DNA from: an uncultured Verrucomicrobiae bacterium
GTDB taxonomy: Bacteria; Verrucomicrobiota; Verrucomicrobiia; Chthoniobacterales; Chthoniobacteraceae
Assembly (NCBI GenBank): GCA_963769025.1
Contig: CAVYKI010000009.1
Coordinates: 992,001-1,056,000 of the forward strand
Reading direction: 5' to 3'
DNA: 64,000 nt
Shown: one piece after another, positions 7,295 to 12,697 of the stretch
How the letters are laid out: each line of letters begins with the position of its first letter
How positions within the stretch are numbered: position 1 is the first letter of the stretch
The notes under the pieces: generated by a model
The model's database searches: none
Seen by the model: only the letters and a program-made list of their open reading frames with translations
What the model was told of the DNA's origin: nothing
Program-made: the position numbers and the translations under genes

Positions 7295-7543
7295 GTTGCC
7301 TCGAACCTTACGCCCGGCCTTGCCGGATGGACGTGACAAAGCGCGAGCGTTCATCTGCGCATGCGGCCTCAACGGACTTCGTGCCGCCGCAAACCCACGG
7401 GATTGCGGACCCCTTCGGCGGACGCCACGGTTCGCGCGAGCATCGCGTAGCGCCGGGAAGAAGCACCGCCCCCCCGGGCGGTGGACGGCATTATTCGCGA
7501 TTTTGGCCTGCCACTTGAGCCCGAGGTTTCATACGCTTCTCCG

Positions 7544-7894
7544 ATGCACGACTTGGCGATTTCCCTGCAAGCTTTCGTAGCCGCCTCGATCTTTTTCGTT
7601 TGGGTCGTGCGCTACGACAACATCATCGCGGAGTTCAAACAGTATCGCCTGCCGGACTGGCTCCGCGATTTGGTCGGGATTCTCAAGCTCGCCCTGTCTC
7701 TGCTGCTGCTGATCGGAATCGAGCGCCCGCGCTTCGCCATCGTGGGCGGGCTGGGCATCGCTGTCCTGATGGCGTGCGCCTTCGTCGTGCATCTGCGGGT
7801 GAAGAACCCGCCGTTCAAGATGCTCCCCTGTCTCACGCTGCTCGTCCTTTCCGCCACGATCGCATTCATCAACTACCGGCTCGTGAACGCGTAA
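7544..7894 (+). CDS. DoxX-like small membrane protein
   Basis: EFKQYRLPDWLRDLVGILK, LMACAFVVHLRVKNP; four hydrophobic segments. Confidence 0.75.
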   Translation: MHDLAISLQAFVAASIFFVWVVRYDNIIAEFKQYRLPDWLRDLVGILKLALSLLLLIGIERPRFAIVGGLGIAVLMACAFVVHLRVKNPPFKMLPCLTLLVLSATIAFINYRLVNA

Positions 7895-7904
7895 GTTCCG
7901 GAGC

Positions 7905-8675
7905 ATGGGTTCCAGCGAAGCACCAGCGCGGGTTCCCGATGATGCGCAGCGGCTCGCGGCGCGGGCTCGGCCAACGGGGCGACCGGTGATGTATCAGCAA
8001 TGGCGCGACCTGCTCTTTCTCCACTGGGAATATCCAGCCGCTGCGATTCAGGCGACGCTGCCGGAGGGCCTGTTTGTGGATACGTTCGGTGGAAAGGCGT
8101 ATCTCGGCATCGTCCCGTTCTTCATGCGCAACATCCGGCCGCGCTTTCTGCCTGCGGTGCCGGGCATCTCGAATTTCATGGAGGTGAACCTGCGCACCTA
8201 TGTGCATGATCGATCCGGTGTCCCCGGTGTGTGGTTCTATTCGCTCGATGCGAACCGATGGCTCGCGGTGAAAATTGCGCGGAGGTTTTTTCATCTGCCC
8301 TACGAGCACGCGAGGATGCGGGCGAATCGCGCACCCGACGGCCGCATCCGCTACGAATCGCTGCGCACCGGCGAGCGGGCGAACGGCGCGAGTTGCCTTT
8401 TTGAATACGCTGCCGGAGCGGAGCTTCTGCCGCCGTCGCCCGGCTCGCCGGAGTTTTTTCTCGTCGAGCGCTACCGGCTCTATTCCCGCGCGCCCTGCGG
8501 GCTGCGGCGCGGCGCAGTTTCTCATCAGCCGTATCCGCTTTGCCGCGCGGATGTGTCGGCTTGGGACGACCACTTGCTGACGCTCGACGGCTTCGCCCCG
8601 GCTGGCCGCCCGCCGGATCACATCGTCATGTCGCGCGGGGTGGACGTGACGATTTTTCCGCTGGAGCGGGTGTGA
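7905..8675 (+). CDS. DUF2071/YqjF family protein
   Basis: MYQQWRDLLFLHW, EVNLRTYV, PGVWFYSLDA, FLVERYRLY. Confidence 0.85.
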   Translation: MGSSEAPARVPDDAQRLAARARPTGRPVMYQQWRDLLFLHWEYPAAAIQATLPEGLFVDTFGGKAYLGIVPFFMRNIRPRFLPAVPGISNFMEVNLRTYVHDRSGVPGVWFYSLDANRWLAVKIARRFFHLPYEHARMRANRAPDGRIRYESLRTGERANGASCLFEYAAGAELLPPSPGSPEFFLVERYRLYSRAPCGLRRGAVSHQPYPLCRADVSAWDDHLLTLDGFAPAGRPPDHIVMSRGVDVTIFPLERV

Positions 8676-8756
8676 AACCGCTCTCTCGCCGATGTCTTCC
8701 TGCGACCTTCCGGTTTCTGTTGTCGCGAAGTCCGGATTCCATCATTCTCGGCGGGC

Positions 8757-9336
8757 ATGGAACAGGAACCCGATCCACAGCTCGATGCGGAGATCGCGCT
8801 CTTGCGTCGGGTCGCGCAGGGTGACCGCCGGGGTTTCGAGGAACTTTACGATCGCTTTTCCGGCGTCCTTTTTTCCACCGCGCATCGCGTGCTGAACAAC
8901 CAGGAGGCCGCCGAGGATGTGCTGCAGGATGTGTTCATCCAGATCTGGGAAAAGGCGCCGCTATACGACCCGTCGCGCGGAAAGCCGATGACGTGGGCGA
9001 TCACTCTCACCCGGAACAAGGCGATCGACCGCCTGCGCTCCACGCAGCGGCGCGGCCGGTTGCAGGAGGAGCTGATGCAGGAAACGCAAACTTCCGAGCA
9101 ATTCGATGATCGGAGTTCCTTCGATGCGGCCTCAGCGGGCGACACGAACAAGCTGGTCCACGAGGCGATGCAGAAGCTCTCGCCCGATCAACGCGAGGCG
9201 ATCGAACTCGCCTTTTTTTCCTCTCTCACGCAGATGGAAATTTCCGAGCGGCTCAAGCGTGCCGCTCGGCACTGTGAAGGCACGCATCCGCCGCGGCATG
9301 ATGCGGCTGCGGGATCTGCTGGGTCCGCGATTGTAG
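8757..9336 (+). CDS. ECF sigma-70 factor (SigK-like), frameshift at about 9255
   Basis: Region 2 AEDVLQDVFIQIWEKA...WAITLTRNKAIDRLRS; region 4 LSPDQREAIELAFFSSLTQMEISERL continues in another frame as VPLGTVKARIRRGMMRLR*. Confidence 0.9.
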
Positions 9337-9345
9337 CCGCCCGGA

Positions 9346-9920
9346 TTACGCCGCGATGCGGTCCGTCAGTTCACGTTCGCGGGCGACGAGCCAGAGCGGC
9401 TGGCCCTCGCCGTTGAGAATCGGCGTGATGGCGACCTCGACCCAGTAAGGTGTGCCGTTCTTGTGGTAGTTGAGAATCGTCTCCTTGCACGGCTGGCACT
9501 CGTGCACCGCGCTCCGCATGCGCGCCGCGACCTCCCGGTCGGTCCTGGCGCCTTGCAGGATCGGGCCGAGATTTTTTCCACGCAACTCGTCGAGAGAATA
9601 TCCGCACATCTCGGTGAAGGCGGGATTGACCCATTGCACGAGGCGATCCGGGCCGCACACCACGAGCGCTTCGGACGCCACGTGCTGCGGGCGCTGGCGA
9701 TCAGGCCAGCGATGCGAGCCTTGAGCCCCGGCGAAGGCGATGGGTCTGCGGCGCGGCGCGTGGAGAGCGTCAGCGCCGCACCCACCTCCGACATCCCGGC
9801 CGCGAAATCGCGGAGTTCATGGTGAAATTCGAGGAGGAGTTCAAACTGCTCGCGCTCCTGCGGAGTCATGGCTCCGGAGGAGAAGAGTGCGGCTTGGTCC
9901 TGGAGGAATTCGTTGAGCAT
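9346..9920 (-). CDS. Putative soluble anti-sigma factor: anti-sigma-like N-terminal domain plus LOV-like PAS domain, frameshift at about 9690
   Basis: N-terminus MLNEFLQDQAALFSSGAMTPQEREQFE...PSPGLKARIAGLI (inside ORF 9366..10649) joins PAS ALVVCGPDRLVQWVNPAFTEMCGYSLDELRGKNLGPILQG...LNYHKNGTPYW (ORF 9346..9681) after a one-base correction. Confidence 0.7.
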
Positions 9921-9962: not shown

Positions 9963-9989
9963 TACGTTCCATCGCCTGCTTTGGATACA
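9963..9989 (-). promoter_or_regulatory. Candidate ECF-sigma promoter TGTATCC-N16-CGTA
   Basis: Minus strand reads tgtatcc aaagcaggcgatggaa cgta, about 42 nt upstream of the ATG at 9920; resembles the TGATCC..CGTA promoters of RpoE/ChrR-type systems. Confidence 0.5.
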
Positions 9990-10058
9990 TTTTACGCCGA
10001 AATTTTCCAAGCGGCCAGAATCGGCTAGCCGGCGTATCGCCACCATGTTCACGCCCCA

Positions 10059-11440
10059 ATGAAACGCGCCCGAAAGCTGAGGAATCTCATCCTCGTCCTC
10101 GGAGATCAACTGGACGAGCGCTCGGCGGCATTCGATGGCTTCGACCCCCGCATGGACGCCATCTGGATGGCGGAGGTCGCGCACGAGTCCGAGAAGGTCT
10201 GGGTGGCAAAACCGCGCATCGCCATTTTCCTCGCGGCGATGCGCCACTTTCGCGATGCCCTGCTCGAGCGCGGCTGGCGGGTCTTCTACCGCGCGCTCAC
10301 GGCGAAATCCGCGGAGTGGAGCGGACTGAGCGGCACGGGATTGCCCGGCGAGACATTCGCCGCGCAACTCGCGTGGGCCATCGCGCAGACGCATCCGGAA
10401 AGGCTCATCATCGTCGAACCCGGCGAGTGGGGCGTGCGCGACGAAATCGCCGCCGCCACGCGCGAAGCGAAAGTGCCGCTGGAGATTCGCACAGACCGCC
10501 ATTTTCTCTGCTCCGCCGAGGAGTTCGCCGCGCACGCGAAAGGCCGGAAGCAACTGCGCATGGAATATTTCTACCGCGAGATGCGCGTGAAGACCGGCGT
10601 GCTCATGGACGGCGACAAGCCCGCGGGCGGCGAGTGGAATTTCGACCACGACAATCGCGAATCCTTCGGCAAAGACGGCCCCGGCTTCCTGCCAGCGCCG
10701 CGCCGATTTCTGCCGGACGAGACGACACGCGAAGTGATGGCGATGGTCTCCGCGCGCTTCGCGAGCATCCGGGGGAGTTGGAAAAGTTCGACTGGCCCGT
10801 GACCGCCGCGCAGGCGCGCGAGGCGCTCGATGATTTCATCGCGCACCGGCTCCCGGATTTCGGCCGGTGGGAGGATGCGATGTGGTCGGGCGAGCCGTGG
10901 CTCTACCATTCGCGCCTCAGCGCCGCGCTTAATCTCAAGCTGCTCGATCCCCGCGAAGTGCTCACCGCCGCCGAGCGCGCATGGCGCGAAAAGCGCGCGC
11001 CGATCGCGAGCGTCGAGGGTTTCATCCGGCAAATCCTCGGCTGGCGGGAATACGTGCGCGGCATCTACTGGCGGCTCATGCCCGGCTACGTCGGGCGCAA
11101 CGCGCTCGGCGCCGACGAGCCGCTGCCGGCATTCTACTGGACGGGCGAGACGGAGATGAACTGCCTGCGCCACGCGCTTCGCCAGACGCTCGACCACGGC
11201 TACGCGCATCACATCCAGCGGCTCATGGTCACCGGACTCTTCTCGCTGCTGGTCGGAGTCCGCCCGCGGGAGATCGAGGAGTGGTATCTGGCCGTGTACG
11301 TCGATGCCGTGGATTGGGTGGAGCTGCCGAACACTCTCGGCATGTCGCAATACGCAGACGGCGGCGTGATGGCCTCGAAGCCCTACATCGCGACCGGCAA
11401 ATACATCCAGCGCATGTCGAACTACTGCGCCGGCTGCCGC
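10059..11440 (+). CDS. Cryptochrome/photolyase family, FeS-BCP (PhrB/CryB-like) type; frameshift at about 10762 and C-terminally truncated
   Basis: [73 protein letters not shown]; runs straight into fasciclin sequence. Confidence 0.85.
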
Positions 11441-11849
11441 GAAGCGAAAACCATCGTCGGCGTTGCTTCCGGTGCCGGAGCAGTTCAACACCCTCGTGGC
11501 CGCCGTCAAGGCAGCCGGCCTCGTGGACACCCTCAATGGCGCCGGACCTTTCACCGTCTTCGCGCCGACTGACGAAGCGTTCGCGAAGCTCCCCAAGGGC
11601 ACGGTGGAAGACCTGCTCAAGCCCGAGAACAAGGCCAAGCTGGCATCGATCCTCACTTACCACGTGCTCGCCGGAAAAGTCATGGCCGCGGATGTGAAAA
11701 CCATGGGCGCCAAAACCGTGAACGGCAAGGAAGCGTCCATCAAGGTGGGTGGAGGCAAAGTGACCATCGGCGCCGCGAATGTCGTGAAGACGGACATCGC
11801 CGCAAGCAACGGCGTTATCCACGTCATCGACACCGTCCTCATCCCGTAA
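11441..11849 (+). CDS. Fasciclin (FAS1) domain protein lacking start codon and signal peptide
   Basis: [61 protein letters not shown]; extra base at about 11480. Confidence 0.85.
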
Positions 11850-11897: not shown

Positions 11898-11924
11898 GAT
11901 TGGGTGCACTACCCGCCGAGACCT

Positions 11925-12116
11925 ATGTTTCACAAAATCGACTACCCGTTCCTGATCGGGGCTTTCGTCAGTTTCCTCGCCAGCGTCACGCTCTGGTTTC
12001 TGAAAAGTCACGAGTACCGGCTTTTCGTCGGCCTTTGGGTGCCGAGCATTCTCAGCCTGTGGGTCGGAGTGCGCATCGCCATTCTCTCCACCGGCATCAC
12101 GATGAGAAGGCCCTGA
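11925..12116 (+). CDS. Small two-helix membrane protein
   Basis: MFHKIDYPFLIGAFVSFLASVTLWF...LFVGLWVPSILSL; hydrophobic; GC3-biased codons. Confidence 0.6.
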   Translation: MFHKIDYPFLIGAFVSFLASVTLWFLKSHEYRLFVGLWVPSILSLWVGVRIAILSTGITMRRP

Positions 12117-12119
12117 CGC

Positions 12120-12257
12120 ATGGAATACCTCATCGCCATTTTCGGCCTCGGTGTCGCCGTGAGCGGCGTCGTCATGAAAGGCATCTTCCATGCCGAAGAG
12201 TTTACAAAGACTGAGTTGGACCGCCGAAACGAGGAAGGCAACAGAGGATCATCCTGA
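12120..12257 (+). CDS. 45-aa single-pass membrane peptide (below the ORF-track cutoff)
   Basis: MEYLIAIFGLGVAVSGVVMKGIFHAEEFTKTELDRRNEEGNRGSS*; starts 3 nt after the previous stop. Confidence 0.5.
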   Translation: MEYLIAIFGLGVAVSGVVMKGIFHAEEFTKTELDRRNEEGNRGSS

Positions 12258-12354: not shown

Positions 12355-12697
12355 ATGAACATCGGACTCTCTGACAGGACCCGGAACACCGTCATCAAAA
12401 CGCTGCAACCGCTGCTTGCCGGTCACGCAGTGCTCGCGATGCAAACGCGCGCCGCTCACTGGCGGCTCACGGACCGGCTCTTCAAGCCCGTGCACGAATG
12501 GCTCGGCGAGCAATACGAAGAATTCTGCCGAAGCGTGGCTGAAGTTGCTCCTCGCTCACCGCGAAGCATTGATCTGCCAGCTCCGCAGCGCGGCAGATGC
12601 GGTCGGCTCCGCAGGGGACAGCGGCACGCAGGACTTTCTCATCGGCCTCATGGAGGACCATGAAAAGACCGCGTGAATGCTGTGTTCCAGTGTCTGA
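12355..12697 (+). pseudogene. dps: Degenerate Dps/ferritin-like gene
   Basis: MNIGLS...AHWRL...VHEWLGEQY, then an internal deletion/frameshift, then GDSGTQDFLIGLMEDHEKTA*ML with TGA where HEKxAWML has Trp. Confidence 0.7.

Follow-up and report, generated by a model that had tools for sequence, protein, structure and literature searches.

RskA, the anti-sigma-K factor of Mycobacterium tuberculosis (SigK-RskA complex, 4NQW), carries a zinc-free class I anti-sigma domain (ASD) followed by a transmembrane helix and an extracytoplasmic RskA_C domain (PF10099), and is encoded downstream of its sigma factor in the same operon. ChrR, the partner of sigmaE in the singlet-oxygen and blue-light stress responses of Rhodobacter sphaeroides and Vibrio cholerae, is soluble, with a zinc-binding N-terminal ASD and a cytoplasmic cupin (PF12973) through which it senses, and chrR is co-transcribed with its sigma gene. 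The anti-sigma factors named in the published passages sense via a zinc-binding anti-sigma domain or, in ChrR, via the cupin. Here we analysed a 64,000-nucleotide stretch of DNA from an uncultured Verrucomicrobiae bacterium (the window; assembly GCA_963769025.1, contig CAVYKI010000009.1, positions 992,001 to 1,056,000 of the forward strand), in which positions 8757 to 9920 hold a gene for a SigK-like extracytoplasmic function (ECF) sigma factor and, convergent with it, a gene whose product joins a putative class I ASD to a PAS domain of apparent LOV descent (ASD-PAS). We give a probability of roughly 0.7 to the reading of ASD-PAS as a soluble, zinc-free class I anti-sigma factor, and that it functions as an anti-sigma factor seems likely. 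It would represent an uncharacterised way of switching a sigma factor: in line with the first-pass annotation of the sequence, which knew of no characterised anti-sigma factor of this kind, a full-text literature search found no ASD-PAS or ASD-LOV protein, although the supplements of classification papers, not covered by it, could mention one, and term look-up in PMC7406223 and PMC7826278 did not find the architecture.

ASD-PAS resembles RskA in its zinc-free class I ASD, for which RskA is the best fold match, and in a partner sigma factor that best matches SigK, but it has neither the transmembrane helix nor RskA_C, carrying a cytoplasmic PAS domain instead, and its gene is convergent with the sigma gene and has its own candidate promoter. 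With ChrR it shares solubility, the order of an N-terminal ASD and a cytoplasmic sensor, and photolyase and oxidative-stress neighbours, whereas its sensor is a LOV-lineage PAS domain and its ASD has no zinc ligands. ASD-PAS seems to work like ChrR and to stand nearest to RskA by descent, and it lacks the features that define its relatives, namely the ChrR cupin, the transmembrane helix and RskA_C of RskA, the HxxxCxxC of ZAS domains and the LOV cysteine. LOV-type PAS domains are coupled to the control of alternative sigma factors in YtvA (LOV-STAS, Bacillus) and in the LOV histidine kinases that feed the EcfG general stress response; their action is indirect, by way of the stressosome or of phosphorelay with partner switching, and they keep the NCRFLQ cysteine, whereas ASD-PAS fuses the PAS domain directly to the sigma-binding domain and has the cysteine and three other flavin contacts replaced. 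In the B12-dependent, light-induced carotenogenesis of Streptomyces, the regulator LitR (LitR/CarH) is paired with a partner ECF sigma factor, LitS, according to the abstract of PMC11519972; the verrucomicrobial module differs by the addition of ASD-PAS, and the term 'anti-sigma' has no mention in that paper.

An anti-sigma domain and a PAS domain in one protein

The argument rests on three features of the window:
8757..9336, plus strand: SigK-like ECF sigma gene, about 192 residues (Pfam Sigma70_r2, E 1.9e-20, and region 4), with an extra base at 9258
9694..9920, minus strand: class I anti-sigma domain, residues 1 to about 76 of ASD-PAS, with no zinc motif and no cysteine
9346..9693, minus strand: LOV-related PAS domain (Pfam PAS_9, E 1.3e-14) with the stop codon at 9346-9348

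The ATG at 9920 opens the minus-strand frame MLNEFLQDQAALFSS...KARIAGLIAS of the anti-sigma part, and the PAS frame, which ends at the stop codon 9346-9348, is offset from it by one missing base after 9693; once one base is added there, the gene encodes 191 residues from 9920 to 9346. The sigma gene starts at 8757 and reaches its stop codon at 9334-9336 only when the extra base at 9258 is skipped; its uncorrected open reading frame (ORF) extends to 9416, and the region-4 remainder, PLGTVKARIRRGMMRLRDLLGPRL, lies in the other frame, which closes at 9334-9336, the first frame being left at about 9258. Both indel positions, 9258 and 9693, were placed by alignment with seven orthologous loci. Nine nucleotides separate the two stop codons, the distance given in the first-pass annotation, which had also described the one-base break of ASD-PAS correctly; the second frameshift, that of the sigma gene at 9258, had gone unmentioned, and the distance holds once it is corrected. 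In 11 of 11 same-genus orthologues examined, a single open frame of 190-191 residues joins the N-domain to the PAS domain, so the two halves are not separate ORFs in homologues.

The N-terminal domain was compared with known anti-sigma factors by a profile built from 11 N-domains and scored against 1.84 billion representative proteins. It found 153 representatives at E<=1e-3, with RskA- and ChrR-type anti-sigma factors ranking next after the family itself. A Pfam scan of 80 of the 150 listed matches, those of at least about 160 residues, assigned RskA_C to 37, PAS to 23 and the ChrR cupin to 2, with 13 having no domain and 5 another or a spurious one. The profile aligns at the N-termini of the RskA_C and ChrR-cupin proteins (E about 2e-8 to 7e-4) with helices 1-4 collinear, and several of the RskA_C proteins have weak RskA_N or zf-HC2 matches at the aligned N-terminus. 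The window N-domain has no cysteine and no HxxxCxxC, and the region that forms this motif in RslA reads V...H..L when aligned with 3hug_B. These results, together with the fold matches below, bear out the RskA/ChrR class I pattern without zinc ligands that had been read from the letters, and we conclude that the N-terminal four-helix ASD descends from RskA/ChrR-type anti-sigma factors.

AlphaFold2 gives a pLDDT of 90.4 both for the whole protein and for the isolated domain. The modelled ASD helices span residues 4-15, 20-32 and 34-54 and, after a lower-confidence linker, 64 to about 75, which gives a three-helix bundle and a fourth helix after the linker, as expected for a class I anti-sigma domain; the chain then enters the PAS fold, and the model holds no transmembrane helix, as had been proposed. 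In Foldseek, ranks 1-11 for the ASD model are all anti-sigma domains (RskA, RslA, RsiW and ChrR; template-modelling (TM) scores 0.54-0.69), with RskA 4nqw_B at the top (0.66/0.67). In addition, a predicted complex of the sigma factor of locus L008 with residues 1-80 of its ASD-PAS neighbour, a check that the first-pass annotation had suggested, gave an ipSAE of 0.82, the best of 3 controls reaching 0.00; solved complexes come up to this mark in 116 of 157 cases, mismatched pairs in 2 of 215. Three runs share at least 90% of their contacts, with a partner pLDDT of 86, and ASD helices 1, 3 and 4 are together predicted to contact sigma-2 (residues 20-94) and sigma-4 (130-192). This agrees with the dual interface on sigma-2 and sigma-4 described for class I anti-sigma factors, RskA among them, in passages of PMC7406223.

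The C-terminal part matches the Pfam families PAS_9, PAS_4 and PAS. Searched against the PDB, the full-length profile has 163 matches at E<=1, and all 60 shown are LOV domains or LOV photoreceptors, among them CagFbFP variants (8e-24), PpSB1-LOV-type sensory box proteins, phototropins, EL222 and YtvA, with 6ywi as the best sequence match of the PAS part (8.3e-24). The PAS model superposes on CagFbFP with a TMt of 0.93, a root-mean-square deviation of 0.9 A and 34% identity (Foldseek). The domain thus appears LOV-like, as initially annotated, and of LOV descent; yet, judged from its residues, it seems to be no canonical LOV domain. The LOV motif GRNCRFLQG is replaced by GK(N/K/S)(L/P)GxxLQG with one residue inserted, GRN(C/A)-RFLQG pairing with GKNLGPILQG in the alignment from this PDB search. 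The position of the adduct cysteine is occupied by leucine, or by proline in distant members, in 11 of 11 orthologues and 20 of 20 more distant ASD-PAS members. Mapped through the same alignment, the residues that we take to be the LOV flavin contacts are kept at Q123 (LQG), N151 (NY) and mostly R136 (helix-F Arg); the arginine after the cysteine is lost, the asparagine of FWN is Val161 and the I-beta glutamine is an invariant Glu182. Across 34 diverse members, aligned with 34-80% identity to the first sequence and a mean column identity of 52%, 13 positions are invariant, including Q123, N151, Y152, Y159 and E182, and C106 (MCGY) is nearly so.

Of the 1008 candidates found by searching 5.8 billion proteins with one orthologue, 621 reach E<=1e-3. 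The 120 family proteins listed are mostly 191 residues long and come from Verrucomicrobiota or Chthoniobacter; where a source names them, the name is 'PAS domain-containing protein' or 'PAS domain S-box-containing protein', with 'hypothetical protein' also in one row. The ESM Atlas lists only PAS-named clusters, from Verrucomicrobiota, and Pfam assigns only PAS families to the full-length family proteins. Recognition of the ASD would thus give proteins that carry no more than such names a testable function, and would tie the family to a defined partner sigma factor and a defined promoter. Among species-representative genomes, 146 stretches were matched, 133 of them encoding an ASD-PAS relative, and when 41 genomes, that of the window and 40 relatives, were searched in six frames for the N-terminal 76 residues, 19 had a match. 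The 133 stretches, and metagenomic proteins numbering in the hundreds, make for a wide spread of the family among Verrucomicrobiota. A second, intact ASD-PAS copy lies on contig C3 of the window's own genome. Several metagenome-assembled genomes (MAGs) have two or three ASD-PAS loci, each with its own sigma gene, as have both paralogues of the window genome, which suggests that the sigma/ASD-PAS pair duplicates as a unit.

The convergent sigma gene, the candidate promoter and the gene neighbourhood

The sigma orthologue profile matches SigK (4nqw_A, 1.1e-27), SigW (6e-21) and R. sphaeroides RpoE (9e-21) in the PDB, and we regard the sigma factor as probably SigK-like (clade of ECF18/19), a placement made by profile match and not by formal ECF group assignment. 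The orthologue consensus is without cysteine, one orthologue (L009) ending in one, so that the redox-sensing cysteine pair reported for SigK in passages of PMC7826278 is absent.

For locus counts, we retained 80 loci, which belong to MAGs of Chthoniobacterales, Terrimicrobiaceae and Verrucomicrobiaceae, and sought sigma orthologues in them by tblastn (E<=1e-6). A sigma orthologue was found in 61, and in 60 of the 80 it is convergent with ASD-PAS, tail to tail: within 170 nt downstream on the opposite strand in 51 and across a gap of 0.6-2 kb in 9, the flank of the one further sigma-bearing locus being too short to judge. The convergent layout, in place of an operon, which had been flagged as atypical, is thus conserved across Verrucomicrobiota. 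Four of the 19 loci without a sigma gene have less than 1 kb of downstream flank. In the Chthoniobacterales, ASD-PAS holds the place of an anti-sigma gene beside the sigma gene, and in the Verrucomicrobiaceae it is an extra, unlinked member. In four Verrucomicrobiaceae-type loci (L112-L115, genomes G042-G045), the sigma gene is followed by an RskA_C anti-sigma gene and ASD-PAS lies elsewhere, beside Zincin_1, RDD and YebC genes; two anti-sigma-domain proteins may compete for one sigma factor there. In six other loci (L051, L063-L066 and L070), a TPR gene of about 297 residues with RMD1-3-like repeats stands between ASD-PAS and sigma, on the ASD-PAS strand.

Upstream of the two genes, two elements were found in the window:
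9963..9988, minus strand: GTATCC-N16-CGTA, a candidate ECF-type promoter for the anti-sigma gene; its 3' end is 43 nt from the start codon
8713..8725, plus strand: GTTTCTGTTGTCG, the core of a conserved element that precedes the sigma gene

The pattern GNATCC-N16-CGTA precedes 67 of the 75 ASD-PAS genes with enough flank, 50-85 nt upstream of the start codon, with a spacer of exactly 16 whose length is constant and whose sequence is variable, and orphan loci carry it before ASD-PAS as well. In 775 kb of loci the strict motif occurs 73 times against 4.4 expected, 54 times at the ASD-PAS gene, twice at another ORF cluster and 17 times at no ORF of the selected set, with no copy ahead of any other named neighbour. 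In the window, 9963-9988 is the only exact match, and one-mismatch matches are at chance (12, mean 10). The motif resembles TGATC-N16-18-CGTAW, which the Fig. 5 legend of PMC5241685 gives for sigmaE of the V. cholerae ChrR system. One strict copy, at G000:C12:236392 (+), stands 58 nt before an ORF resembling the catalase-peroxidase KatG and might mark a regulon member or be a chance match.

The sigma gene has a different upstream element. The pattern CCGGTTTCTRTTGTCGGCG (window 8700-8745), followed about 17 nt later by C(A/C)CAT(G/T)CT, stands 30-45 nt ahead of the start codon of the sigma gene and is seen again among 57 orthologous upstream regions; the core at 8713..8725 is unique in the genome at up to one mismatch, one unrelated site excepted. 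This element, CCGGTTTCTRTTGTCG, differs from the ASD-PAS promoter motif and is not assignable to any sigma factor, and the same holds for a GCGGC-N17-CGTAT pattern upstream of the photolyase-like DPRP gene. The latter, seen at window positions 10000-10040 and in orthologous intergenic regions with an embedded (G/A)GAA(C/T), shares CGTA with the ASD-PAS promoter but not the -35 part.

The neighbours across the 80 loci were clustered and then named with Pfam (a range gives two counts):
fasciclin: 14-18 of 80 loci
FeS-type (6-4) photolyase-like DPRP: 12-14 of 80 loci
SDR: 11-17 of 80 loci
class I cyclobutane pyrimidine dimer (CPD) photolyase: 10 of 80 loci
lipocalin: 10 of 80 loci
DoxX: 7 + 7 loci of 80
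Lon: 7 of 80 loci
fatty-acid desaturase: 6 of 80 loci
amine oxidase: 6 of 80 loci
HSP20: 6 of 80 loci
AhpC: 4 of 80 loci
SOUL: 4 of 80 loci

A CarH-like gene lies near ASD-PAS in only 2 of the 80 loci. In the intact paralogous module of the window genome (G000:C3:1346000-1360000, L093), a MerR gene with a B12-binding domain (CarH/LitR-like) directly precedes the sigma gene, ASD-PAS again being convergent; the adjacent genes encode two CrtI/N-like (amine-oxidase/desaturase) proteins, an aldehyde dehydrogenase and a GT2 glycosyltransferase, a group that looks like a C30-type carotenoid cluster from its gene content. This combination of a MerR/B12 regulator, a sigma factor and carotenoid-type desaturases recalls the LitR/CarH and LitS system. 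Photolyases, fasciclin, SDR, lipocalin, amine oxidase, peroxiredoxin, CarH-like and carotenoid genes point to a response to light damage or photo-oxidative stress, and the neighbours resemble light-damage and singlet-oxygen regulons; each association is found in a minority of loci and by adjacency only, and we judge the chances of a photo-oxidative or light context of the module to be about even. The architecture is thus found beside a convergent sigma gene in most loci, whereas photolyase genes accompany it in only a minority (DPRP or CPD type). The claim that the sigma factor drives photolyase, fasciclin and Dps genes reduces to adjacency, with DPRP in at most 14 and fasciclin in at most 18 of the loci and the promoter motif before the anti-sigma gene only.

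Proposed release of the sigma factor and competing explanations

The single ORF in relatives, the homology and fold of the ASD, the LOV lineage of the PAS domain, the synteny and the promoter motif are supported by the data; for binding, release, the signal and the regulon, we infer the following. The cytoplasmic LOV-lineage PAS domain, which begins about 10 residues after ASD helix 4, would replace the transmembrane helix and C-domain of RskA or the cupin of ChrR, and a signal perceived by it would change the presentation of helix 4 and the bundle and so free the sigma factor. The freed sigma factor might then transcribe the anti-sigma gene from GNATCC-N16-CGTA, and the convergent, separately promoted layout would allow negative feedback without co-transcription or an operon. 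A sigma-binding module would thus be fused to a LOV-lineage version of PAS, a very versatile cytoplasmic sensor fold, and if the PAS domain responds to light or redox state, a protein of 191 residues, a sigma factor and a promoter could form a very compact orthogonal switch.

Several results weigh against this reading or limit it. The best PDB sequence match of the N-domain profile, the anti-sigma factor RslA (3hug_B), is marginal (E 0.087, one of 3 matches at E<=10), none of the 11 N-domains matches a Pfam anti-sigma model (RskA_N or zf-HC2) even at E<=10, and the Foldseek E-values of the ASD matches are weak (0.18-0.84), which we attribute to the small size of the domain. Binding is predicted only, and since the SigK-RskA complex has already been solved, the predictor may recall it, and its score expresses likeness rather than proof. 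No sigma gene lies within about 3 kb of ASD-PAS in 15 of the 80 loci, although their flanks are adequate (59 of the 107 nearest ORFs scanned); five orphan genomes encode a sigma orthologue elsewhere (E<=3e-49), one of them also having a ChrR-paired sigma factor, and as a canonical RskA_C gene follows it in four of the five, ASD-PAS there would not be the sole, or not an obligate, sigma partner. In the 80 loci no copy of the motif precedes a sigma, photolyase, fasciclin, SDR or lipocalin gene, and genome-wide the motif occurs at chance (23 times, against 22 and 24 with wrong spacers), so that a regulon is not definable from it. The missing Pfam match, the weak E-values against solved anti-sigma structures and the 15 loci without a nearby sigma gene would also fit a small PAS sensor with an unrelated helical extension, for which the adjacency of the sigma gene would be incidental. 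We consider this very improbable, given that 37 RskA_C and 2 ChrR proteins among the 80 scanned are matched exactly at the N-terminal anti-sigma position, that the top eleven fold matches are all anti-sigma domains, and that a convergent sigma gene in 60 of 80 loci and a complex score of 0.82 against 0.00 speak for a sigma-binding domain.

If the N-domain is an ASD, the role of the PAS domain can be read in more than one way. The PAS domain might bind flavin and act as a direct blue-light or redox photoreceptor, with illumination itself releasing the sigma factor in a one-component switch, close to what the first-pass annotation had stated. In its favour, the 60 sequence matches shown from the PDB, like the leading structural ones, are all flavin-binding LOV domains, three LOV flavin contacts are kept (the glutamine of LQG, the asparagine of NY and mostly the helix-F arginine), the best-scoring PDB chain, 6ywi, is itself a Q148E variant of a flavin-binding LOV domain, the same Gln-to-Glu change as in the PAS domain, and the photolyase, CarH and carotenoid neighbours suit a light response; LOV signalling without the cysteine does exist. 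On the other hand, the adduct cysteine is leucine or proline, the phosphate-binding arginine is lost with one residue inserted in that helix, the FWN asparagine is valine and the I-beta glutamine is glutamate in 20 of 20 distant members and 11 of 11 orthologues, and no canonical-LOV member was found in the family, the adduct cysteine being present in 0 of the 20 more distant ASD-PAS proteins retrieved. Since every member inspected has other residues in place of the cysteine and of three further flavin contacts, the flavin photoreceptor is unproven and the claim is not supported in the form in which it was made; we think it unlikely. A variant on the same lineage, namely a one-component light- or redox-gated anti-sigma factor with a different photochemistry and the flavin still held in the pocket, seems quite improbable. 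In that case, the invariant glutamate at the I-beta Gln position, invariant tyrosines and nearly invariant tryptophans might support photoreduction and N5 protonation, and a change in the beta-sheet, without a cysteine adduct, could pull ASD helix 4 and free the SigK-like sigma factor directly; no shorter route by which a photon or an oxidant reaches a sigma factor would then be known, and the protein would serve as a compact optogenetic sigma switch. The PAS domain might also not be the switch at all but a dimerisation or stability module or a constitutive metabolite binder, in which case regulated proteolysis or another partner protein would free the sigma factor. Many PAS domains hold no ligand, Lon protease genes lie near 7 of the 80 loci, the TPR gene stands between anti-sigma and sigma genes in 6, and orphan ASD-PAS copies coexist with RskA-type pairs; yet most loci have neither a Lon nor a TPR neighbour, and the 13 invariant positions in 34 members include the pocket-lining Q123, N151 and E182, which argue for a specific ligand or conformational role, so that we hold this explanation to be improbable. 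We therefore prefer the reading in which ASD-PAS is a soluble anti-sigma factor whose PAS domain acts as the sensor.

Interrupted frames and neighbouring genes in the window

Around the sigma/ASD-PAS pair, the window holds the following genes:
7481..8675, plus strand: DoxX-like and DUF2071 genes, which immediately precede the sigma gene on its own strand (DoxX_2, 2.7e-14; DUF2071, 6.1e-69)
10059..11440, plus strand: FeS-type (6-4) photolyase-like gene (PF04244 DPRP, 1e-68), divergent from the anti-sigma gene
11441..11849, plus strand: fasciclin-domain gene (Fasciclin, 2.4e-41), frameshifted and without its signal peptide in the window copy
12355..12676, plus strand: Dps/ferritin-like gene, split over two frames (Ferritin, E 9.2e-06)

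The photolyase-related, fasciclin and Dps-like genes noted at first are thus present, and each is also interrupted. The photolyase-like gene has a frameshift near 10790 and has lost about its last 58 codons; an intact DPRP orthologue (L029) matches PhrB 4dja at 1.5e-150. Orthologues of the fasciclin gene begin MKK...AAAFA, a signal peptide that the window copy lacks. The Dps-like match covers only positions 78-128 of the 142 in the Ferritin profile. The region between the convergent sigma and ASD-PAS stop codons shows no intrinsic terminator, no T-rich hairpin and no unusual RNA structure (z-score 0.74).

Five consecutive genes (sigma, ASD-PAS, photolyase-like, fasciclin and Dps-like) are interrupted within 3.9 kb. 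The assembly consists of 13 contigs at 83% completeness. In a frame control, 57 genes on one contig of a relative were compared with their counterparts in this genome, and 22 frame switches, one or two of them probably ORF-extension artefacts, were found strongly clumped in 9 of the 57: 8 in rpoB (G000:C3:124490-128321, against a 90-98% identical orthologue), 4 in nuoD, 2 in rpsA and 1 in cysS, which is split between its HIGH and KMSKS regions (window about 26550). This corresponds to about 0.33 indels per kb of aligned coding sequence. Since such frame switches are clumped in essential genes, the frameshifts of the window are most likely assembly errors, and we consider assembly artefacts the probable source of the single-base breaks; the clustering of the five broken genes as a sign of real decay was downgraded, though not dropped, after similar clumps had been seen in essential genes. 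The first-pass annotation had asked for the fused ORF to be confirmed from reads. A short-read contig about 90% identical to the window, from two public runs, has the extra base behind 9692. No public run contained half of the sampled words, the best share being 0.10, and four runs gave only relatives of about 90% identity.

The five consecutive interruptions might instead mark the window copy as a genuine pseudogene in a decaying duplicate locus, with the intact pair at C3:1353-1354.4 kb doing the work. About 440 nt of the relative L030 are absent from the window at 11440/11441. This loss, which is not a typical read error and could be a real deletion or a mis-assembly, would suit such decay, as it removes the last 58 or so photolyase-like codons and the fasciclin signal peptide and joins the two genes. 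We find this rather unlikely in view of the clumped frame errors of the assembly, the 83% completeness in 13 contigs, and the remainder of the sigma and ASD-PAS genes, which is open and conserved. Between the fasciclin and Dps-like genes (11904-12257) lie two small ORFs of 70 and 45 residues with hydrophobic stretches.

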